A DNA stretch of 63,873 bases, the filler included, from Aduncisulcus paluster (lineage: Eukaryota), in NCBI GenBank assembly GCA_024181965.1. It is 41 parts of 41 records of this genome, joined end to end, with 100 filler letters (N's around TTAATTAATTAA, not from the genome) between each part and the next. Parts side by side here need not be neighbours in the genome. Positions count along the whole stretch, not along the records: positions 25,894 to 27,512 come from BQXS01008665.1; 40 more parts are not named here. The stretch is one strand, 5' to 3'. Every line of letters begins with the position of its first letter. Positions within the stretch are counted from its first letter, which is position 1. Below, piece by piece: positions 2,960 to 63,873 of the stretch. The notes beneath the pieces were generated by a model that did no database searches, was not told the DNA's origin, and saw only the letters and a list, made by a program, of their open reading frames with translations. Position numbers and translations under genes: made by a program.

Positions 2960-3643
2960 TTACTGACCTTTATCTAATTTCCCCTTCAAAGCCTTATTTC
3001 CTTCCAAATACTTCTCTAAAGCCTCACAGTCCTTCACTGTGGGATAATATTCCCAGGTATTCATCTCCTGACCGTAGTCTTTCCATTTAACAAGGAACTT
3101 TATCGGCAGTTTGCCTCCAAATCTATGTTTTATGATTTTTTCAACCACATATTCAGTCTCATCCTTCCCATTGATCAGGATTTCTTCTTCAACTGAGACA
3201 ACGGGGTCTGAAATGTATTTAACCATTCTCCTTACTGGGACATCCTCCGAGTCCCCCCCTTTTATGGGTTTTACCCTATATAAATGGTCTGTTATCCTTT
3301 CGACAACCAAATAAGGTCCTAATAATTTGCCTTGTTCCTTTTTTCCTTCTCTTTTCCTTCTTAATAAGATCTTTTCATCCTTCTCGAATTTTTCAGGCTC
3401 TTTAGCGGTAAATTCCTTTTTATCATCATGAGAACTAATTTTTTCATCTATTATCGTTTTTTCTATTTCCTTTTCCACGATTTCTTCAACTAATGGGTTC
3501 TTATCCTCTCCCAAAACCTCAGCTTCTCTTAAGAACATTGCATAAAAGGGCTGAGCATCGAATTGTGAGCTGTACCGTCTGTTAAGAGTCTCCATGACAT
3601 AATCACTGAATTCTCGTAAGTTCTTTTCTTTAGACATGTTCCA
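2960..3643 (-). mobile_element. Ty3/Gypsy (chromovirus) pol C-terminus: integrase end, GPY/F motif, chromodomain
   Basis: LLGPYLV motif. EYVVEKIIKHR..FLVKWKDY..NTWE chromodomain. Near-identical copy at 48931-50118. Confidence 0.9.
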
Positions 3644-18124: not shown

Positions 18125-19125
18125 TTCAGAAAGCTCCATTCGATCAGCTCTCAGTGGATCTGTTTGGTCCTATTGATCCAGATGCACAGCTAGGATACAA
18201 GTACCTCACAGTCTTTGTGGATAACTTCAGCAGATTTGTTGAGCTCGTCCCAAGTGAAAGTACTACAGTGCTGGAAGCCAAACAGGCCTTATTACAGGTG
18301 ATAGGGAGGCATGGTTCACCTAAAACAATTCGAACAGATGGAGGATCACAGTTTACTTCCTCTATGTGGAGGGAATTGATGACGACGCTGGGAATTGAGC
18401 ACATAGTAACTACTCCAGATCACCATCAAGAAAATGGTCAAGTAGAGAGAGTCAACCGAGAGATATTGAGGCAGCTTAGGCTCCATTTTGCGGCTGGATG
18501 CTCAAAAACCGACTGGGTCAAGTTAGTCCCCATCATTATGGGTACTATAAACTCTCGGGGATCAGAAAGAACAGGTAGAAGCCCAATGGAAATCCTGTAT
18601 GGCCAGAAAAGGAAACCTCATAAGCTGTTTAAAGAATCTTCTGGTGCAACCCCGGAGAGATGGGAAAAGATTCTGAGTTACAGAGAGGATGTGAGGGATG
18701 ATGTTGAGTCTGAGGTTCGAACATCGGATGAAAAGGTCGTCTCGCAGAGAGAACAGTCTCAGACAGATTTTATACCCTTCAAACCTGGGGAGAAAGTACT
18801 TTTGAGCCGGAGGAAACCCGGAAAGAAGACAGACACCATCAATCTTGGTCCTTTTGTGGTGCTTGAGAAGACAAGCAGTTTTTATTACAGAGTAGAGTCT
18901 GTTAATGGAGGAAAGAAACAAAAGGTACATGTTTCCAGAATGAGATGTTATAAATCGAGTGCATCGGAGGAAGAGGAGAAAACAGCAGAAGCTGCTGACG
19001 ATCAAGAATACAAGGTTGAACGTATTGTGATGCATCGAGGAAGAGGGAAGAAGAACATCAAGTTCAGGGTAAAGTGGCAGGATTATGGGATGGAAGATAA
19101 CACCTGGTTGAGCTTCAAAGAGGTG
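18125..19125 (+). mobile_element. Ty3/Gypsy integrase core + GPF + chromodomain
   Basis: SVDLFGP, VDNFSRF, IRTDGGSQF, ENGQVERVNR, LGPFVV, EYKVERIVMHR..VKWQDY..NTW. Confidence 0.95.
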
Positions 19126-23678: not shown

Positions 23679-24183
<505 letters not shown>

Positions 24184-25793: not shown

Positions 25794-26094
25794 NNNNNNN
25801 NNNNNNNNNNNNNNNNNNNNNNNNNNNNNNNNNNNNNTTAATTAATTAANNNNNNNNNNNNNNNNNNNNNNNNNNNNNNNNNNNNNNNNNNNNGATGGAA
25901 AGCTTAAAGATATGTCTAACCCCGACTTCCAGTGCCCAGAGCATCACGTTCCATATGCCCAATAGGGCTAGGTTTATTTCTGAATTCTTTTTCCCTGCTA
26001 GGTTTTCTTTCTTAAATAAATATTATTACTGTACTATACTCTCGACCGAAGAAATTGCAAAAGCGATCCATGTGGCTGAAAGATCCGTCGAAAG

Positions 26095-26342
26095 TGTAAG
26101 ATGTTCGCGACATCTATATAGTATTAGGCCTTTTATAGCTCAGCTGGTTTGTCAACAGTGTTGCAACACTGAAGGACCCGGGGTCGAATCCCGGAACGCG
26201 CAAATATCGGGGGCTATAATAAATGGGTGCAATGCCAAAACTGCGGTTGGAAGATGCTATAACGTCCTAATAGGGGCAGTGTAAGATGTTCGCGACATCT
26301 ATATAGTATTAGGCCTTTTATAGCTCAGCTGGTTTGTCAACA
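26095..26342 (+). mobile_element. 248-bp TRIM-like miniature LTR retroelement
   Basis: Identical 63-bp direct repeats 26095-26157 and 26280-26342 (TGT...ACA), TSD GAAAG at 26090-26094 and 26343-26347, purine tract AATAGGGGCAG before the 3' repeat, 122-bp internal region. Confidence 0.88.
26129..26201 (+). promoter_or_regulatory. tRNA-derived Pol III type-2 promoter-like element inside the TRIM
   Basis: A-box TAGCTCAGCTGG (26136-26147). T-arm CCGGG-GTCGAAT-CCCGG (26178-26194) at tRNA spacing. Acceptor and D stems do not pair. Confidence 0.7.
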
Positions 26343-28874
26343 GAAAGATGGGTTGCAAATTGGAAAAAAAGGGCAATTAGAGGAGGAACAGGGTACAAGA
26401 AGAAGAGTTCGGACAATAACGGACGAAATCTCAAGGTCAATCAAAGGAAAGGTGGAGGCTGAGCCAGGGATAATGTTGGATGAAATCCAATCATTTATAA
26501 GGGCTACGCATCACACGGAATTAGCCTTATCCTCAATCTGCTCCTTTCTTCACCGATCAGGTTACACTTACAAGTAGATTTCATGCATCGCGCGAAGGGT
26601 TCAGAGGAACCAGATACTAGCATTTGAAAAAAAAATGGATCAGGTCATTAAGATAAATCACGGAACAAGGAATTTTGTTTTTGTAGACGAAACAGGGGTA
26701 GACCAAAGAACGATGCTCAGAGAAAGGGCATATGGGAGAAAGGGAGAGAGGATTCGAGTTCTCTCAAACAAACAACTGAGGAGCAAGAGAATCTCGTATA
26801 TTGCCTTTCTAGGCATGAAAGGATGGATCCTCTTCGATAGAATAGTTGGCTCACATTGTGTCGCCACATTTCTATCCTCGGTACGAACACTCCTGGCATC
26901 GGGAGCGGTTATCCCCCATACAAAGAATCACATATGGGTATTGGATAACTGTTCTATCCATACGAGTCCAAAAACCATCGCATTCCTGAAGAAAAATGGG
27001 ATTTACCCGTTCTTTTTACCCACTTACTGCCCTTTTTTGACACCGGTCGAAAATGGGTTTAGTGTCATTAAAAAAATATTAAAACGCACTTCTCCAAGCG
27101 AAATAACGGATGCATATGGCCTTTGTCGACAAACCGATCTTGCCTTCTTCAGCAAAAGCGATGTCTGTGCCTACAATCCCAAACCCCATTATTCTCAAAC
27201 CAATTGGATACATAAAACAGTACATGCCATTGGTTATAGAGAAGATGGATATTATAGATCTAAGACAACTCAAAAGGTTCTCGACTTAAAAGAAGATGAT
27301 CCACCATTTTCATTCCCTCATGAAGGAATTGAATATTGGGTATCAGATGAAAATGGTATATTACATTTAGAATAAATTTTTATAAATATACATTTATTTA
27401 ATTAACAGATTGATAGAAAACAAAATAGATATAATCTCGAGGTCTTGGAGATTTCTTTCAAAGAGACAAGGAGAACTTCCCCTTATTCCTCACTTCCAGG
27501 TGATATTTGATCNNNNNNNNNNNNNNNNNNNNNNNNNNNNNNNNNNNNNNNNNNNNTTAATTAATTAANNNNNNNNNNNNNNNNNNNNNNNNNNNNNNNN
27601 NNNNNNNNNNNNTGACAAAAATATCCCTCCACCCCTCATAGAGTTTTCACCGAAAATCTGAGGTCTCTAGCTTAAGAAACCATGGAGATACATCATCCTT
27701 GAGGGAGGGCTTACCAATACCCCCCCTCTCATATATATGGTATCCGGGGGTGCACGATTCTAGCGCGACCCCCAGAAACCTAATTGTTTCAAACGGGCCT
27801 TGAGCGAACTCTGATGACCAAAACACAATGATAGGAGACATTCATTAGATTATAGACATATATTGTAGATTAAGCTCGTTTATCCCTAGAGCTTTTCACC
27901 AAACGAGAAAGACAAAAAATGCACTTTTTCTGAGGCGGAAGCCACAACCAAAATTTTAAGGGTTCATGGTCAAAACATATATTAACTACATATGTCTACA
28001 TTACAGCATATATAGAAGTCGAGACCTGAAGAGGAGAACTTGAGCACACCCATGACAATTCTCATGTTAATTACAAGATCGAGCTCTTCCCTCATAATGT
28101 AGTAATTACTTGAAGATATTATGTTTATATCATATGTCACCATACAACTCTCTCCCTCCTCACCCCATCTATTACTCTCCAGCATCCTCTCATATCTCTT
28201 GACTCAATTTCCAACATCTCACCAGGTGATTATTTTCCCTCATAAAGACTACTTCTCCCCCAAATGAGAACTATTATATAATAGTGCTAAACCACTACTA
28301 TATAGTGTGCTTAAATCATATTACTTTGTTCTTTATATACCTCCTTTCCCCCTCAATATCTGCTTTATCACATTTTCCCTCATATTATTAACTAACTATC
28401 TTTTTATCAACTATTCGTATTAAAATTTTACTTTACTTAAATCATATTTTGGTGTTTATAAACACTCTCTTTCTTTACTTTATACTTTCTTCCCAAAAAA
28501 AAAACAAAACAAAACAAAAACAAAAAAATACCAAGCAGAAGCAATAGAACTCTTCCTAACCCCTCATGACCTTAAGAGGCTTGTCCCACAGTGATTGGGG
28601 GCGAATAAGGAACTGTGATATTGCCTCTCTGTATCCTGATTGGGCTGTGAGCCTCAGATGTCGCCCCAAGAGCAATAGCTCCAGGCCGGTTTAGGTGTTA
28701 TCCTAACTAATAAACTGTTATACTACTGTACTATACTGTACTATAATCTTTCTTTGTACTATAATCTTTCTTTGNNNNNNNNNNNNNNNNNNNNNNNNNN
28801 NNNNNNNNNNNNNNNNNNTTAATTAATTAANNNNNNNNNNNNNNNNNNNNNNNNNNNNNNNNNNNNNNNNNNNN

Positions 28875-30275
28875 ATCAAATCGTACTAAGGATTTTGCAT
28901 CATCAAATAAAAATTTTGCTAAAGTTTTTGCTGATTCTGTTTTACCAACACCTGTTGGTCCTAAAAACATAAAACTCCCAATAGGACGACTATCATCACT
29001 CAGTCCTGCTTTATTTCTTTTTATCGCGCGACTTATTGCTTTTAAAGCTTCATCTTGACCAATAACATCAGCTTTTAAAACATTTTCTATCTGTAAAACT
29101 CTTTCTTTTTCACTTGATATCATTTTGTTAATAGGGATACCAGTCCACCGTGATACAATACTTGCAATAGCATCTTCATCAACAAAATTTCTTAAAAGTG
29201 TTCCTGATGCTTGCATTTTTGCCNNNNNNNNNNNNNNNNNNNNNNNNNNNNNNNNNNNNNNNNNNNNNNNNNNNNNNNNNNNNNNNNNNNNNNNNNNNNN
29301 NNNNNNNNNNNNNNNNNNNNNNNNNNNNNNNNNNNNNNNNNNNNNNNNNNNNNNNNNNNNNNNNNNNNNNNNNNNNNNNNNNTTCTTCAAATTTACTCTC
29401 TCTTTTTGCTCTCTCTGCTTTACTTCTTAATTCATCTATTTGTGTTTTGATTGTAGAAATAGCATTAAAAGTCTCTTTTTCATTTGTAAATTGTGTTTCC
29501 AAATTTCTTTGCTTCTCTTTTAAATTTGACAACTCCTCTTCTATCTCTTTTAATCTATTTGTATTTTTATCACTTTTTTCCATTTTTAAAGCTTCTTTTT
29601 CAACAGCTAAAGTACCAATCTCTCTTTTTGTAATGGATAAAATTGTTGGTTCAGATTCAATTTGCATTTTTAATTCAGCTGCTGCCTCATCTATCAAATC
29701 AATCGCTTTATCTGGTAAAAATCTATCTGTAATATATCTATGACTTAATTTTGCAGCACTTACCAATGCACTATCTTTTATAGTTACATTGTGAAAAGTT
29801 TCAAGTTTTTCTTTAATACCACGCAATATTTGTAATGCTTCATTCACACTTGGTTCATCAACATTTACAGGTTGAAACCTTCTTTGCATAGCTGTATCTT
29901 TTTCAAAATACTTTCTATACTCTTTTAATGTAGTTGCTCCAATTGTATGCAACTCACCTCTTGCTAATGCTGGTTTAAGAATATTTGCAGCATCCATACT
30001 TCCTTCACTTGCCCCTGCACCTATAATAGTATGGATTTCATCGATAAATAAAATAATATTTCCTACTTTTTGTACCTCTTTTATTACAGCTTTGAGTCTG
30101 TCTTCAAACTCACCTCTATATTTAGCACCTGCAATTAAAGCAGACATATCAAGAGATATTACTTTTTTATTCAATAATGATGTTGGAACATCTTTGTTCA
30201 CAATTCTTTGAGCAAGTCCCTCTGCAATTGCAGTTTTACCTGTTCCAGGTTCTCCTAATAAAATAGGATTATTCT
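28875..30275 (-). CDS. clpB: Chaperone ClpB (partial, gapped)
   Basis: [38 protein letters not shown], coiled-coil M domain, [11 protein letters not shown]. Confidence 0.96.
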
Positions 30276-43127: not shown

Positions 43128-44131
43128 TAATCACTTCAAAAGACATCATTTGGACTGACATTCACCAACAATGTTTCGATAGATTGATGGATTTACTCGA
43201 AAATAATATGAGTTTATATACATACGATAATGCATTACCACTAATTCTGAGGACAGACGCGTCCTCGTATGGTTTAGGCGGCATGCTCGTTATGGTGAAG
43301 GACGGAAAGGAGTTACCTATTAATTTCTTCGCCAAGAAATTCTCGAAACAAGAACAGAATTGGACCACTATTGAACAGGAGGCGTTCGCAGTAATATATG
43401 GTCTTAGAAAGAACAGGCAGTTTTGCTTGGGCAGGCATTTCCGAATTGAGACCGATCATAGGAATTTGACGTTTGTATTGAAAAGCGAGTCAGCAAAGTT
43501 AATGAGATGGAGACTAGAGCTTGCAGAATACACGTTTGAAATTGCTCACGTATCCGGAGTGGATAACAAGATGGCGGATTATTTATCTAGAAAACATCAG
43601 CCAGTTAAAGAAACGGTCACCGCAAAATCATTTATTTCACCGAAGATTGAACCCTCGATTCGGGAAAAAGTTATCTCTGAACAAAAGAAGTTAACGGAAA
43701 ATCCCGAGAAACTCATCAGAATTGGTGAGTTCCTGGACGATCAAGAAGGACGAATCGTCATCCCTGATGATTCGGAAGATCTACAGAAAGAGATCATACA
43801 TCTGTTCCATGCTCATGTTTTGGCAGGCCATTACAGTGCTACATATACAGCGGCAAGGATCATAGAAGCTGGGTTTTATTGGAGAAACATACGCGTAATG
43901 GTCAAAACAGAAGTCGACAAATGTCCGATTTGTCAGAAAAACAAACCTCTGCATCCACCCCCGATCATGGGAACGATAATGAAAAGAGGAATATTTGAAG
44001 AGGTGAGCATTGATTCTTTGGGTCCAATTACTACTGATGAAGAAAACCCAATCAAATATATTATTGTGATAATCGACAATTTTTCGAGATTCGTGGAGCT
44101 AATACCATCAGAATCTACAACTGCAAAAGAA
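43128..44131 (+). mobile_element. Ty3/Gypsy pol: RNase H + integrase HHCC zinc finger + start of core
   Basis: LRTDASSYGLGG, EQEAFAV, ETDHRNL, NKMADYLSR, H..GH..CPICQ, SIDSLGP, IDNFSRF. Confidence 0.96.
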
Positions 44132-46102: not shown

Positions 46103-46262
46103 GGAGGTATTTTACTCAATGTATCCTCACGGTGGGACGGTTTCAGACAAAACACCAGCCGAGATAAGGGACTTAGTAACGACAATAGACCGATGTCTTC
46201 GACGCATGAATTGCATCAAGTGAGCACACACACATCCAGCATTACGGCACAGCATTCTAAAG

Positions 46263-46336
46263 TAGGGCGGGCGGGGCTCGAACCCGCGACCAATGGATTA
46301 TGAGTCCACGGCTCTAACCAACTGAGCTACCGCCCC
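46263..46336 (-). tRNA. tRNA with CAT anticodon, most likely tRNA-Ile2 (lysidine), actinobacterial
   Basis: GGGGCGGTAGCTCAGTTGGTTAGAGCCGTGGACTCATAATCCATTGGTCGCGGGTTCGAGCCCCGCCCGCCCTA. Full cloverleaf, CCA not encoded. Confidence 0.95.
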
Positions 46337-46562: not shown

Positions 46563-47609
46563 AGATGCTTCGCTGGAGAATCCAATTATCAGCCTATTCC
46601 TTCAACATTTCATACATTCCAGGCAAAGAGAATATTTTTGCTGATTATTTGTCGAGACTCCAAGATATTCAAACAATCGCAACGATTGACAGTGAAACTA
46701 TGACAGAAAAAATATGGAAGACTCACAAAAAACTGGGTCATGCATCAGCAGACACTATTATCTCCGAACTCGAAAAACATCAACCTGTTAACAAAGAAAC
46801 AAAGAAATTGGCCAAAGAATTAATACAAAGTTGTACTCAATGTCAAAAAGTAGCCCCTTTTCGAGGAACAAAAACAACAGGACACCTCATCGCATCATCA
46901 ACGTTCGATTGCATCTCTGTCGACACTATTGGCGAAATGGACGAAGACAAACTTGGTAATCGTTACATTATAGTTGCTGTAGACGACTTTTCTCGCTTTG
47001 TTTTCATCAGGCCATACCAAGATTGTACGGCAAGCTCTGCAATCTCTTTTTTCAAAGATCTTTTTGCTCTTTTCGGAACACCAAACAAGGTTCGAACGGA
47101 CAATGCAAAACAATTCATTGCAAAACCGACGGAAGATCTCCTGAAAGAAAGAGAAATCGAACATATCCTAACGATTCCATACGACCACAGCGGCAACGGA
47201 AAGTTGAACGCGTCAATCGGGAAATCAGACGATTAGAACGAATTTATAAAATGGAAAATGATATTTGGAACTATCAAACATTTACAGCATACTGTATGGA
47301 AGCGATAAACTGTCGAAAACATTCAAGTACCTCTTTTGCTCCTTTTTAAGTCATGTTCGGAAGAAAATCACAAGATATTTCAATTTTAAAGGATTATACA
47401 AAAGAATTAGAAAAGAAAAGGGAAGATATAGAAGCAGAAATTGCAAAATCCCAACCAGAATCGAAAACTCCAACAACATTCAAAATAGACGACCTGGTAT
47501 TGTATAAACCTGATAAAATTTCAAAGAAATCGGCTCCACGGATGCAAGGTCCATTCATTATATCAGAAATACTATCTCCATACAGATATCGTATAAAACC
47601 AATAGACGG
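46563..47609 (+). pseudogene. Decayed Ty3/Gypsy RNase H end + integrase
   Basis: NIFADYLSR, H..GH..CTQCQ, VRTDNAKQF. One-base frameshift in NGKVER near 47200 and in-frame TAA at 47347. Confidence 0.9.
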
Positions 47610-47709: not shown

Positions 47710-48597
47710 GTCGTACCTCAGTGGGAGTTTTTTTGCTCGGCGATTAATTCAAAGGGCAATCTGGGTTTGATGAAGTTTCGGCTTCGTCTGCCCTTATTCT
47801 CATCTCATTCACTGTCAAAGGTCCCTGGAGTTGGATTATCCAGAGAGAGGGACCATCGACTTTTAGGGAGAGCACGCCGCTTTCTATGTTTGATTTTCGT
47901 TTGTTCCTTCGGGGGCTTCTTGGATCTTATGTAGAGTTTTTAGGCGTTGTCTGAAGTGTACGAAACGAGCCTTGAAAAGTCACGGGGCGAGACGCAGGAT
48001 TGATTCTCATCCGTACCCACAACCGCAGCCGGTCTCCAAGGTGAACAGCCTCTGGTCAAGCAAGAAAAAGCATGTGAGGGAAGTCGGCAAAATTGCTCCG
48101 TAACCTCGGGATAAGGAGTGGCTCTGGCGACAGGCTAGCAGGGACCCTTTGGGGTGTTTTATGTCTAGTGCATAGTGCTTCGGTGCTATACGCTGGCACG
48201 TTGATGTTGATACTTGTATTTTCGGATTCGTGTTGTTAATTGTTGACGTAGTTTGTGGTTGGAGCAGCTGTACCTTCGGGTTTGGCTGAGCCCCCTTATT
48301 GTGTCCAGTTAGCGAGCATTTAACTTGCCACCATTGTGGGAGCTCTTTTGTACTTGGTTTTTTAATCGAGTATTGGGGGCCTTCCTCTCTATCGAAGCTG
48401 TCAAGTCAGAACTGGAACGGACTAAGGAGAACCCGACTGTCTAGTAGAAACATAGCCTTCAGATGGCCATAACAGGTGTTGACTGAAGGTGAATTCTGCC
48501 CAGTGCTCTGAATCGTTACGTTGAAGTGATTCAATTAAGCGCGGGTCAACGGCAGGAGTAACTATGACTCTTGAAAGGTAGCCAAATGCCTCGTCAT
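47710..48597 (+). rRNA. Eukaryotic LSU (28S) rRNA fragment, copy 1
   Basis: GGTCTCCAAGGTGAACAGCCTCT, GGGAAGTCGGCAA, TTCTGCCCAGTGCTCTGAAT, GAGTAACTATGACTC, GGTAGCCAAATGCCTCGTCAT. Confidence 0.97.
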
Positions 48598-48930: not shown

Positions 48931-50118
48931 CTTTGAAATATTCTATTTCACCCCTTTCCTTGCTTCACATATATCGTATTTTCCTTGTAAAAATCCTTAT
49001 CCTGTGTCCCTTATTAATCCTCCCTTTATCTCCTTTATACCTGCAAATACTTTTTAGAACAGCTATAATTATTTTCCTATGTTCCTTTTTATCCTTAATT
49101 TATAATTTTTTAACCTTTAAAGCCCTTAATTAAGACTGAAATTAACTTCTGGAGTAGACCTCGAAAACGGCATTAGATTTGCTCTACGGCGAAGTCGGTT
49201 TTTTCGATCGTTTTCCTTAATAAAATTTAATCTCCAAATTAGTTTTTATGCCTTCTGAAGGTGCTAATCCTTCAATCATTTCTTATTTTTCTTAAATTCG
49301 AAGATAATTTTCTCCTTTTAATTCGATAAAAACGCATTTATAATTTTTTCCTTGAAAACCTTATGAATTTTAATAAAATCCTTTATTTCAGCAAAATTTA
49401 TCTGTATAATGCTTCTCCTTATTTAAATTGTTTGTTACTGACCTTTATCTAATTTCCCCTTCAAAGCCTTATTTCCTTCCAAATACTTCTCTAAAGCCTC
49501 ACAGTCCTTCACTGTGGGATAATATTCCCAGGTATTCATCTCCTGACCGTAGTCTTTCCATTTAACAAGGAACTTTATCGGCAGTTTGCCTCCAAATCTA
49601 TGTTTTATGATTTTTTCAACCACATATTCAGTCTCATCCTTCCCATTGATCAGGATCTCTTCTTCAACTGAGACAACGGGGTCTGAAATGTATTTAACCA
49701 TTCTCCTTACTGGGACATCCTCCGAATCCCCCCCTTTTATGGGTTTTACCCTATATAAATGGTCTGTTATCCTTTCGACAACCAAATAAGGTCCTAATAA
49801 TTTGCCTTGTTCCTTTTTTCCTTCTCTTTTCCTTCTTAATAAGATCTTTTCATCCTTCTCGAATTTTTCAGGCTCTTTAGCGGTAAATTCCTTTTTATCA
49901 TCATGAGAACTAATTTTTTCATCTATTATCGTTTTTTCTATTTCCTTTTCCACGATTTCTTCAACTAATGGGTTCTTATCCTCTCCCAAAACCTCAGCTT
50001 CTCTTAAGAACATTGCATAAAAGGGCTGAGCATCGAATTGTGAGCTGTACCGTCTGTTAAGAGTCTCCATGACATAATCACTGAATTCTCGTAAGTTCTT
50101 TTCTTTAGACATGTTCCA
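48931..50118 (-). mobile_element. Second copy of the chromovirus pol 3' end and 3' UTR (CDS 49435-50118)
   Basis: Same protein as 2960-3643, with only a handful of nucleotide differences. Confidence 0.92.
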
Positions 50119-60317: not shown

Positions 60318-61367
60318 ATGACGAGGCATTTGGCTACCTTTCAAGAGTCATAGTTACTCCTGCCGTTGACCCGCGCTTAATTGAATCACTTCAACGTAAC
60401 GATTCAGAGCACTGGGCAGAATTCACCTTCAGTCAACACCTGTTATGGCCATCTGAAGGCTATGTTTCTACTAGACAGTCGGGTTCTCCTTAGTCCGTTC
60501 CAGTTCTGACTTGACAGCTTCGATAGAGAGTAAGGCCCCCAATACTCGATTAAAAAACCAAGTACAAAAGAGCTCCCACAATGGTGGCAAGTTAAATGCT
60601 CGCTAACTGGACACAATAAGGGGGCTCAGCCAAACCCGAAGGTACAGCTGCTCCAACCACAAACTACGTCAACAATTAACAACACGAATCCGAAAATACA
60701 AGTATCAACATCAACGTGCCAGCGTATAGCACCGAAGCACTATGCACTAGACATAAAACACCCCAAAGGGTCCCTGCTATCCTGTCGCCAGAGCCACTCC
60801 TTATCCCGAGGTTACGGAGCAATTTTGCCGACTTCCCTCACATGCTTTTCTTGCTTGACCAGAGGCTGTTCACCTTGGAGACCGGCTGCGGTTGTGGGTA
60901 CGGATGAGAATCAATCCTGCGTCTCGCCCCGTGACTTTTCAAGGCTCGTTTCGTACACTTCAGACAACGCCTAAAAACTCTACATAAGATCCAAGAAGCC
61001 CCCGAAGGAACAAACGAAAATCAAACATAGAAAGCGGCGTGCTCTCCCTAAAAGTCGACGGTCCCTCTCTCTGGATAATCCAACTCCAGGGACCTTTGAC
61101 AGTGAATGAGATGAGAATAAGGGCAGACGAAGCCGAAACTTCATCAAACCCAGATTGCCCTTTGAATTAATCGCCGAGCAAAAAAACTCCCACTGAGGTA
61201 CGACCCGAGGTCGTCACGTGCGTTTGCGTTACCGCCTGTTAAAGACGATTCTCACTACAGGACTATAAACCTGTTTCCCTTTCGATACGTGTATCAAAAA
61301 AAGATGTAAAATTATTTTATCCTTCATTACGACACACACCTGCAAAGAGCGTTTGCTTGTCTCTTAG
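60318..61367 (-). rRNA. Eukaryotic LSU rRNA fragment, copy 2 (intron start at 60272-60317)
   Basis: Reverse complement of copy 1, extending further 5' (CGAAAGGGAAACAGGTT). Confidence 0.97.
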
Positions 61368-61467: not shown

Positions 61468-62637
61468 GTTTGATTTTCGTTTGTTCCTTCGGGGGCTTCT
61501 TGGATCTTATGTAGAGTTTTTAGGCGTTGTCTGAAGTGTACGAAACGAGCCTTGAAAAGTCACGGGGCGAGACGCAGGATTGATTCTCATCCGTACCCAC
61601 AACCGCAGCCGGTCTCCAAGGTGAACAGCCTCTGGTCAAGCAAGAAAAAGCATGTGAGGGAAGTCGGCAAAATTGCTCCGTAACCTCGGGATAAGGAGTG
61701 GCTCTGGCGACAGGATAGCAGGGACCCTTTGGGGTGTTTTATGTCTAGTGCATAGTGCTTCGGTGCTATACGCTGGCACGTTGATGTTGATACTTGTATT
61801 TTCGGATTCGTGTTGTTAATTGTTGACGTAGTTTGTGGTTGGAGCAGCTGTACCTTCGGGTTTGGCTGAGCCCCCTTATTGTGTCCAGTTAGCGAGCATT
61901 TAACTTGCCACCATTGTGGGAGCTCTTTTGTACTTGGTTTTTTAATCGAGTATTGGGGGCCTTACTCTCTATCGAAGCTGTCAAGTCAGAACTGGAACGG
62001 ACTAAGGAGAACCCGACTGTCTAGTAGAAACATAGCCTTCAGATGGCCATAACAGGTGTTGACTGAAGGTGAATTCTGCCCAGTGCTCTGAATCGTTACG
62101 TTGAAGTGATTCAATTAAGCGCGGGTCAACGGCAGGAGTAACTATGACTCTTGAAAGGTAGCCAAATGCCTCGTCATTTATCAAATAAGTGACAGTTGGT
62201 TGGTAACAACTGGCTAGTCGATGATTGTATATGTATGGATATAATTATCTGGCGACACTGTCAAATTGCGGGGAAGCCCTTAGAGCTCTACGTACCGCCT
62301 ATAACTGGAAACAGAGTATGAGTGGGAATAGTAATACTATGAAATCTCATCATATAGGCAGGTGGTATAATGGCCACTGTATGGTAATAATCGTAGAGAT
62401 TGGGTAATCCGCAGCCAAGGCCTAAGGATTCTATTGTATAGTATCTATGGTTGCAGTCCACAGACTAAATGGCAGTGGAGTGGGAAAGTAGCAATACTTT
62501 CTTGCTTTAAGATATAGTCGAACCCCCATGGAGACATGGTCCACCCTTAAGCAAGGTGGAGACATATTTATATGTTGGTATTAGTGTTAATTTGTGACGC
62601 GCATGAATGGAACAACGAGGTTCTCACTGTCCCCACA
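61468..62637 (+). rRNA. Eukaryotic LSU rRNA fragment, copy 3, interrupted by a group I intron
   Basis: Exons join as CCTCGTCAT|TTAATTTGTGACGCGCATGAATGG. Confidence 0.97.
62178..62586 (+). ncRNA. Complete 409-nt group I intron, subgroup IC1, at LSU position 1949 (E. coli numbering)
   Basis: P1 GTCAT/GTGAC with U.G pair. P AAATTGCGGGGAA, Q AATCCGCAGC, R GTCCACAGACTA, S AAGATATAGTC. P3 CACTGTCA/TGGCAGTG. GNRA-capped P8 and P9. Terminal G. Confidence 0.95.
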
Positions 62638-62737: not shown

Positions 62738-63873
62738 GACAGAAGAGGTTTAACAGATGAACAGACAGAAGGAATCGACAGAGAACAGAGAATCAGAGCA
62801 GAAAACAGACGTGCTAATGGAAAAGCATGGGAAACAGTGACTGAAACCAGAGCGAAGGACAGAGCGGACAGAATTCGACAGAACAGACTCGCAGATGGAC
62901 AGGACCTAAAAGAATTTACTGTGGAGAGGAAATCTGATACATATTCTTTTGAGGGAGAGGAATTTGAATGTGCCAGGATGACTCCGAACGAACTTCAGGA
63001 AATTTTCGGTTATAAAGAGATAGAAACGCTATTGAAGACCATGGGACCAGAAGTTGCTGCGCAGGTAAATAAGGTTGCTGAAATTTTGGGAGGCTTGTGT
63101 GTTGAAGATGTACATTTGTTTAAAGACTCCATTGCAGGAGTAAAAGAGATTAAATATTACGTGAAGTTCATAATAGCAATGCTAAAATCAGTGTCAGTGT
63201 TGTTTACTGGATTAGGGAAATCCCCCGCAGTGGTAGAACCTTTCAAAATTGTTGTGACAGATCCAACAAAGGTTATTTCCGAGAAAAAGAGAAAAGTGAG
63301 ATCAGACTGGAAAGATGAAATCAGAGACCAGTTAAATACTTTATTTAAAAAGGGTATAATCAGATACAGTAACACAGATTTTCACAGTGCTACAGTGATT
63401 GCGCCGAAAAAGAACGGAAAACTCAGATTATGTGTGGATTACAGAAAATTAAACAAGATAACAGTGGGTATGGGACAGATTCTACCTTTAATTCACGATT
63501 TATTCAGAGTAATGGAAGGAATGAAATATTTTACAGTGCTGGACTTGACTTCAGGTTATCATCAGATCCCGATGGCCGAAGACAGTATTAAATATACTTC
63601 TTTTGTGACAGAATTCGGACAGTATGAATATACAAGACTACCGTTTGGATTGAAGAATGCCCCTCCATTCTTTCAGGATACGATGAACCGTGTTTTGTCA
63701 GGATTGATCGGAACAGTGTGCTGTGTTTACTTAGACGATATTGTTGTGTTCGGCAGAACAATGGCGAGCATGCTATTGAGTTTATTTGCAGTGTTAATCA
63801 GATTAAAACAGTTCAATATGAGAGTGAATCTCGAAAAGACAGTGATCGGTGCAAAAGAAATCGAATTTCTTGG
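62738..63873 (+). mobile_element. Ty3/Gypsy reverse transcriptase (partial, open to the window end)
   Basis: PKKNGKLRLCVDYRKLN, LDLTSGYHQI, RLPFGLKNAP, VYLDDIVV. Absent from the ORF track because there is no stop. Confidence 0.97.

Follow-up and report, generated by a model that had tools for sequence, protein, structure and literature searches.

The stretch of DNA analyzed here, called the window throughout, comprises 63,873 nucleotides (filler included) from the Aduncisulcus paluster assembly GCA_024181965.1. It contains a 248-nt insert, bounded by two identical terminal repeats, which interrupts a Tc1/mariner-type transposase gene in the part coding for the N-terminus. This insert is very probably a mobile miniature long terminal repeat (LTR) element carrying a tRNA-derived module. 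A fuller description, to which we give an even chance, is that of a non-autonomous LTR retrotransposon, similar in size to miniature terminal-repeat retrotransposons (TRIMs) and to SMART elements, with a split promoter of tRNA origin and of the RNA polymerase III (Pol III) type.

Forty-one contigs of 1-3 kb each, with G+C contents of 0.27-0.69, make up the window, joined by linkers made of N runs around TTAATTAATTAA. The element's contig occupies 25894-27512 (1619 bp, G+C 0.40). Contigs from two public sequencing runs of one sample, X1 and X2, were aligned onto it. The labels of these runs (X1 'DNA?', X2 'RNA?') are guesses, and the sample is possibly the window's own source.

Evidence for a mobile element with long terminal repeats

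The insert spans 26095-26342 and consists of two 63-nt terminal repeats and a 122-nt interior. The repeats (26095-26157 and 26280-26342) lie in the same orientation, are identical at 63/63 positions and have the ends TGT...ACA. As a raw direct repeat the match extends over 66 nt (26093-26158 and 26278-26343, spacing 185), the three additional nucleotides being a coincidental match of the flanks.

In each run, one contig joins 26089 directly to 26343. This joint skips 253 nt, and the five letters GAAAG fit on either side of it, indicating that 248 nt were inserted between 5-bp target-site duplications. The shorter side of the joint measures 25 letters in X1 and 48 letters in X2. The repeat was also recovered alone, on a 317-nt X2 contig, where its 63 nt show no difference and are surrounded by unrelated flanks with AGTTG on both sides. 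This single example is a solo LTR with its own target duplication. Moreover, two X1 contigs start exactly at 26095 behind other upstream sequence. Because of the TGT...ACA ends, the 5-bp duplication, the empty site and the solo repeat with a duplication of its own, we consider the repeats to be the LTRs of a mobile element.

The X1 contigs cover 30/30 bins of the element's contig, the element included. The summed word depth in X1 was 18,000-59,000 for the element and 4,400-26,000 for the transposase; a depth similar to or above that of the transposase suggests that the element is present in many copies, although it does not translate into a copy number. Within the window there is a single full copy, and no further copy was found. 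The X2 contigs cover the transposase, leave the element interior at 26164-26325 uncovered and reach the bin 26110-26163 through the solo-repeat contig; this pattern was used neither for nor against the element. No variant falls inside the element among the 40 of 51 variant rows listed for the run contigs. Searches with exact element patterns in metagenome, genome and viral collections, and a protein word search with the reading frame running through the element, each returned 0 matches.

The element is non-coding: it stays below 1 kb, lacks gag/pol coding capacity, and no Pfam family was found for the reading frame that crosses it. A candidate polypurine tract, short and interrupted, adjoins the 3' repeat at 26269-26279, and no purine-rich tract was found at the matching place of the minus strand. 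Thus, the element is oriented on the plus strand.

It is very improbable that no mobile element is involved and that the structure stems from a tandem duplication, an intron, the transposon's own end repeats or an assembly artefact, with a tRNA likeness due to chance. Such an origin could be suspected from the single full copy in the window, from the shortness of the contig in a fragmented mixed assembly, from the guessed run labels and from the 25-letter side of the joint. It is countered by the solo repeat with its own 5-bp duplication, by the further contigs that begin at 26095, by the complete X1 coverage, by the lack of canonical intron ends at the skipped 253 nt in any register and by the rarity of the promoter box pair described below, which is expected about 0.009 times per window. 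A spliceosomal intron (26096-26343 as GT-AG) was rejected specifically: the six registers of the joint offer no GT-AG, GC-AG or AT-AC, and the skip restores the frame. A transposon end structure and a simple tandem duplication were ruled out by the solo repeat together with the empty site.

The interrupted gene is well defined. Pfam DDE_3 was matched at 26635-27375 (E 2e-19), and a profile built from 51 full-length relatives matched the contig with E 1e-67. An exhaustive search gave 1475 relatives of the transposase at E up to 0.001, the best of them with 33-48% identity; a word-based search gave one relative besides the window's own protein, from Aduncisulcus paluster. Three lesions disrupt the window copy: besides carrying the 248-bp insertion, it has one A too many in the run 26364-26370 and a TAG at 26575-26577. 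In the run contigs one A of 26364-26370 is missing (4884 of 9807 by word depth in X1, 3742 of 3742 in X2), and all covering contigs of both runs have A for T at 26575, which turns TAG into AAG. When the three differences are undone, the frame 25895-27375 is open over 408 codons and aligns with profile positions 20-296 in one stretch (243 bits), as compared to positions 49-296 and 217 bits for the window form. The A-box of the element is not part of the transposase gene. A variant genetic code with TAG 26575 as a sense codon (ciliate or Hexamita code) was also considered, and was rejected since the run contigs covering the site read AAG. The run contigs carry the transposase without all three lesions, at high word depth and in many variant contigs, which suggests that the transposase family is large and possibly still active.

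A tRNA-derived module across the repeat border

An earlier reading of the window (the sequence-only reading) had reported an A-box in each LTR, a T-arm at tRNA-like distance from it and a B-box after the 5' LTR only. These observations were reproduced. The A-box TAGCTCAGCTGG occurs at 26136-26147 and 26321-26332, and T8 (26136) and position 54 (26183) stand 47 nt apart. The T-arm CCGGG-GTCGAAT-CCCGG, at 26178-26194, occurs once in the window; thus, an A-box is joined by a B-box at the 5' repeat alone. The module begins 34 nt into the repeat and its B-box lies 24 nt inside the interior. The TTTT at 26131-26134 and the G at position 54, both pointed out previously as caveats, were likewise read in the sequence.

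The A-box is matched three times in the window with up to one mismatch, against 0.16 expected from shuffles, and its sole other near-match, at 46318-46329, belongs to a tRNA-Met. This genuine tRNA-Met gene (CAT, 46262-46336 on the minus strand), which lies on a contig with a G+C content of 0.53 and is probably bacterial, provided an internal control for box spacing: from the end of the A-box to the start of the B-box, it has 33 nt, exactly as in the module. Chance was modeled with 20 Mb of first-order Markov sequence fitted to the window, searched on both strands. An A-box followed 25-60 nt downstream by a B-box (up to one mismatch) occurred three times in these 20 Mb, that is, about 0.009 times per 60 kb. 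Scanning very many windows will yield such box pairs by chance. At the module, chance is unlikely because the boxes come with a 5-bp T-stem and a hairpin at the anticodon position, and because they are placed inside a mobile element.

With default settings, ARAGORN detected no tRNA at the module. At the 80% threshold it proposed a 75-nt cloverleaf at 26128-26202, read as Ala/Cys, with 5/7 acceptor pairs (four Watson-Crick and one G-T), a poor or unpaired D-stem and a 6-nt anticodon loop. This cloverleaf is weak evidence, as the same run gave a spurious second call in 251 nt. In Rfam, the T-arm region matched the tmRNA model with 13.5 bits (E 0.003), and the stretch alone reached 7.4-10 bits; with E values of up to 10 allowed, Rfam gave no 5S match. 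Folding was no better than that of shuffles, either for the tRNA-like stretch (z -0.70) or for the predicted unit-length RNA (z -0.90). Judged by its sequence, the module is tRNA-derived and is not a tRNA gene. The earlier statement that it does not form a functional tRNA agrees with the empty default ARAGORN output and with Rfam scores far below gathering. The further claim of unpaired acceptor and D stems applies to the D-stem, whereas the acceptor pairs at 5/7 positions in the weak 80%-threshold cloverleaf. The palindrome is indeed placed at the anticodon arm, as the sequence-only reading had it, but it is a perfect 16-nt palindrome (26156-26171) with a loop of at most 6 nt and does not contain a 7-nt anticodon loop.

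Searching the collections with the gapped A-box/B-box pattern gave 48 loci. They are ordinary-looking bacterial or metagenomic tRNA genes, which have only the boxes in common with the module. All 48 (L001-L048) carry the rare T-loop variant GGTCGAATCC instead of the usual GGTTCGAATCC; these may be real variants or sequencing errors.

Table 1. Features of the insert and of the interrupted gene (window coordinates).
Feature	Position	Strand	Basis
Transposase frame 5' of the insertion, helix-turn-helix part	25895..26089	+	51-relative profile aligns once the element is omitted
Left target-site duplication GAAAG, 5 bp	26090..26094	+	run-contig joint 26089-26343; sequence read
5' terminal repeat (LTR), 63 nt, TGT...ACA	26095..26157	+	equals 26280-26342; alone on a 317-nt contig
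TATA-like heptamer TATATAG, putative, in the U3-like part of the repeat	26115..26121	+	sequence read
tRNA-like module (pseudo-tRNA, Ala/Cys-like) across the repeat/interior border	26128..26202	+	ARAGORN 80%; weak Rfam T-arm match
T4 run of the 5' repeat, just 5' of the A-box	26131..26134	+	sequence read; twin at 26316-26319
A-box-like 12-mer, tRNA positions 8-19	26136..26147	+	pattern search
Perfect 16-nt palindrome at the repeat/interior border, expected primer-binding position	26156..26171	+	self-complementary match; hairpin in folds
Interior, 122 nt, non-coding	26158..26279	+	repeat comparison; no Pfam family
T-arm, 5-bp stem, 7-nt loop, G at position 54	26178..26194	+	pattern search; Rfam
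B-box-like 11-mer	26181..26191	+	10/11 against the consensus
Purine-rich tract adjoining the 3' repeat, 9/11 purines; candidate polypurine tract	26269..26279	+	sequence read
3' terminal repeat (LTR), 63 nt; A-box copy 26321-26332, T4 26316-26319, no B-box after it	26280..26342	+	repeat comparison
Right target-site duplication GAAAG, 5 bp	26343..26347	+	run-contig joint; sequence read
Remainder of the Tc1/mariner-IS630-type transposase (DDE_3), pseudogene in the window copy	26343..27375	+	Pfam; profile; run contigs

A possible split Pol III promoter and competing roles for the module

The closest published relatives of such a structure are the Helenus elements (Kojima 2024), TRIMs with a tRNA-like sequence in the LTR described as 'the twin brother of Cassandra' (PMC10886601). 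By analogy with these elements, the module may work as a Pol III promoter, a function whose chances we place just below even. Its boxes would form an internal promoter of type 2 and recruit TFIIIC and Pol III; such a promoter has been proposed for Helenus, and for Cassandra it has been shown. As the B-box lies outside the repeat, the promoter would be complete at the 5' repeat only, leaving the 3' and solo repeats inactive.

Transcription would start near 26118-26128, some bases 5' of 26128. It would then cross the interior, where T4 runs are absent (composition predicts about one, so that this absence is not significant alone), and would stop at the T4 at 26316-26319 of the 3' repeat, the first T4 downstream of the A-box. 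The predicted product is an RNA of about 190-200 nt with the LTR-type order R-U5-interior-U3-R, where U3 and U5 are the unique 3' and 5' parts and R is the terminal redundancy of about 7-17 nt. Reverse transcription and integration would be carried out by the proteins of an autonomous LTR element. The repeat would accordingly open with 33 nt of U3-like sequence (holding a small hairpin and TATATAG), continue with a few bases around the T4, and close with a 23-nt U5-like part, the last third of the repeat, in which the A-box lies.

A promoter located downstream of the start makes a repeat as short as 63 nt explicable. The Pol III function is favored because both boxes have been kept while the D-stem has been lost together with part of the acceptor stem, as in the Helenus LTRs. 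The LTR border is set by the primer-binding site; thus, a split promoter would be natural if the primer paired with the anticodon-arm region, in line with the anticodon-loop priming considered below. We advance tentatively, as a possible but somewhat less than likely form of the element, a minimal Pol III-driven retrotransposon with its primer-binding site inside a tRNA-derived promoter, whose A-box half is copied into both LTRs and whose B-box is left in the interior. In such an element the palindrome of the anticodon arm would double as a primer-binding or dimerization site, only the 5' LTR would have promoter activity, no transcription would start from solo and 3' LTRs, and a reduction of the LTR to 63 nt would become possible.

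Several observations weigh against a Pol III-driven LTR retrotransposon. The B-box has a G at position 54, as compared to the conserved core GGTTC of Helenus (PMC10886601). The T4 at 26131-26134 is only a few nucleotides away from the predicted start, where it might end transcription prematurely. A TATA-like motif in the repeat allows a start by RNA polymerase II (Pol II), and the 85-bp LTRs of SMART have a TATA box (PMC3281118). The tRNA covariance signal is weak: its maximum of 13.5 bits, obtained with the tmRNA model, compares with a gathering score of 47. A complement of a tRNA 3' end (TGG...) is absent after the 5' repeat, its place being taken by the palindrome. The data concern one family with essentially one sequence variant, in which conservation of the boxes is indistinguishable from youth of the family. 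Finally, the shorter side of the X1 empty-site joint is only 25 letters long and the run labels are guessed. A scan of the element's contig for bacterial promoters and terminators stayed at chance level.

Part of these points would equally suit a real miniature LTR element in which the tRNA-like module is a fossil, the relic of a captured SINE (short interspersed nuclear element) or tRNA pseudogene, with Pol II transcription from the TATA-like motif or by read-through. We regard this as unlikely, though not far-fetched. The heptamer is present in the repeat, and SMART, with its TATA box and 85-bp LTRs, may depend on host transcription (PMC3281118). The G at position 54, the degenerate tRNA, the T4 beside the predicted Pol III start and the weak covariance scores would all be at home in a relic. 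However, both promoter boxes survive at their native spacing while the stems have decayed, and random decay would not spare the boxes. Moreover, the 63-nt repeat has no AATAAA, and a start 25-30 nt past the TATA-like motif would confine R and U5 together to about 10 nt.

An improbable alternative is that the module serves reverse transcription or packaging, instead of or besides transcription. The palindrome would then be the primer-binding site for a tRNA fragment ending in the anticodon loop, a mode of priming also reported for Copia-type elements; alternatively, it would be a dimerization hairpin with a self-complementary loop, and the T-arm a tRNA mimic recognized by partner proteins. The palindrome is found exactly at the primer-binding position, where a tRNA 3' end would find no complement, and most fungal Helenus families have primer-binding sites complementary to tRNA anticodon loops, together with 5-bp duplications (PMC10886601). 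A sequence identical to an anticodon arm that is nearly palindromic would also be its complement. Nevertheless, priming would leave the A-box without a role, and in Helenus the tRNA-like sequence was not found to be complementary to the primer-binding site (PMC10886601). Priming by the palindrome is also compatible with Pol III transcription.

Read-through into the primer tRNA during plus-strand synthesis was rejected as an origin of the module. It would leave an antisense tRNA beside the primer-binding site, but the element has its tRNA-like sequence in the sense orientation, on the strand of the purine tract.

Related elements, host and neighboring contigs

The sequence-only reading had called the structure a tRNA analogue of Cassandra. 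The concept is already in print as Helenus and as TRIMp3, the name proposed for Cassandra, Helenus and Ajax jointly (PMC10886601). Helenus is recorded from fungi, animals and one plant, with lengths of 311-1263 bp; its target duplications measure 5 bp in fungi and the plant and 4 bp in animals, and the A and B boxes are conserved inside the LTR (PMC10886601). Like Helenus, the 248-bp element is a non-autonomous miniature LTR element whose tRNA-derived sequence has A and B boxes and forms no functional tRNA. It also resembles the fungal and plant families in its 5-bp duplication, has solo LTRs with duplications, and has a putative non-canonical primer-binding site; in many fungal families this position pairs with a tRNA anticodon loop. 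It differs in four respects. Both boxes of Helenus are inside the LTR, whereas here the LTR holds the A-box and the interior the B-box (26181-26191); the element is shorter than the 311-1263 bp of Helenus, with LTRs of 63 bp; its host is probably a metamonad; and its B-box core is GGGTC instead of GGTTC.

Cassandra shares with the element the status of a TRIM with a promoter taken from a small-RNA gene. Its transcripts are reported to run from the 5' LTR to the 3' LTR with a terminal redundancy of 18 bp (PMC10886601). In contrast to the split, tRNA-derived module described here, its Pol III promoter derives from 5S rRNA and is contained entirely within the LTR. As no 5S match was found in it, the element is not a Cassandra. 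Cassandra elements measure 565-860 bp, occur in plants only, and their transcription has experimental support.

Another very small element is SMART (FRetro129) of grasses, which at 292 bp with 85-bp LTRs has been described as the smallest (PMC3281118) and as 'the reported shortest' (PMC10886601). Compared with SMART, the element described here is smaller by 44 bp in total and by 22 bp in each LTR. Both are tiny non-coding LTR elements with TGT...ACA ends, a 5-bp duplication, identical short LTRs and solo LTRs (PMC3281118). SMART differs in having a TATAAAA box, and the part of PMC3281118 covered here mentions no module derived from a small RNA.

The term 'SINE/LTR hybrid', used in the sequence-only reading, is a fair description of the anatomy. 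As in tRNA-derived SINEs (SINE2), a tRNA-derived head with A and B boxes stands at the 5' end of a short non-coding retroelement. The element is nevertheless not a SINE: it ends in a terminal repeat, whereas SINEs have a tail of the LINE (long interspersed nuclear element) type, or an A-rich or simple-repeat tail, and use target-primed reverse transcription. It has terminal direct repeats, TG...CA ends and a 5-bp duplication at both insertion sites seen, which are marks of integrase-mediated insertion.

In the literature covered, which was partial and left aside the supplementary tables of PMC10886601, where a counter-example is possible, we found no TRIM in which a tRNA-type promoter is divided between LTR and interior. 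No TRIMp3 elements in metamonads were found within the same coverage. The split promoter, the 248-bp size and the probable metamonad host are new, and the kind of element is already known. Should the minimal Pol III-driven form prove correct, no smaller LTR retrotransposon would be on record, and metamonad protists would have their first element of the TRIMp3 type. Elements with small-RNA promoters (Cassandra, Helenus and Ajax) would then reach deep-branching protists, which would support a repeated origin. If the split promoter works, the limit of LTR reduction would be a repeat that keeps, apart from its integrase ends, a few redundant bases and one half of an internal promoter, and the split itself would be a built-in remedy for 3' and solo LTR promoters that point into host genes. 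Such elements inflate pseudo-tRNA predictions, disrupt genes (here that of a transposase) and escape standard LTR finders, whose minimum LTR length is usually longer than these repeats.

As for the autonomous partner, the sequence-only reading had proposed Gypsy machinery. A 5-bp target duplication does not discriminate between Gypsy and Copia. In the Helenus data, 5-bp duplications and anticodon-loop priming go with Copia (PMC10886601). Gypsy/chromovirus pol fragments are present on three other contigs of the window, at 18127-19125 (integrase core, rve, with chromodomain), 43130-44131 (RT_RNaseH with an Integrase_H2C2 zinc finger) and 46565-47233 (integrase core), and no sequence common to these fragments and the 248-bp element was found. 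Within the window, no autonomous partner with matching LTR ends, primer-binding site or interior was therefore seen. Two further RVT_1 reverse-transcriptase fragments lie on other contigs, at 3-1004 and 62738-63871.

The host of the element is probably a metamonad protist, judging from neighboring contigs and not from the element's contig itself. The adjacent contig, of similar composition, carries the N-terminal part of an NADP-specific glutamate dehydrogenase (23680-24183). Its best named relatives are fornicates (Dysnectes, 79% identity, and Giardia muris, 75%, followed by Hexamita and Trepomonas), and many bacterial sequences rank close behind them. The Aduncisulcus paluster relative of the transposase was also taken into account for this assignment. 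Eukaryotic and bacterial sequences are mixed in the assembly, so that adjacent 'genes' of the window are not neighbors in any genome. A bacterial genome of 2.4 Mb (G001) has 21% of the window words in common with it, but does not include the element's contig.

Other contigs showed features of their own. Fragments of a ClpB/Hsp104-like ATPase lie at 28827-30201 on the minus strand, on an AT-rich contig with N runs. An open reading frame of 227 amino acids is present in duplicate on different contigs, at 2963-3643 and 49438-50118, with the same printed opening residues. A second open reading frame occurs in triplicate, at 48010-48405, 60534-60971 and 61590-61961, again with the same printed opening residues. 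These recurring frames on different contigs are duplicate or repeated sequences within the chain.

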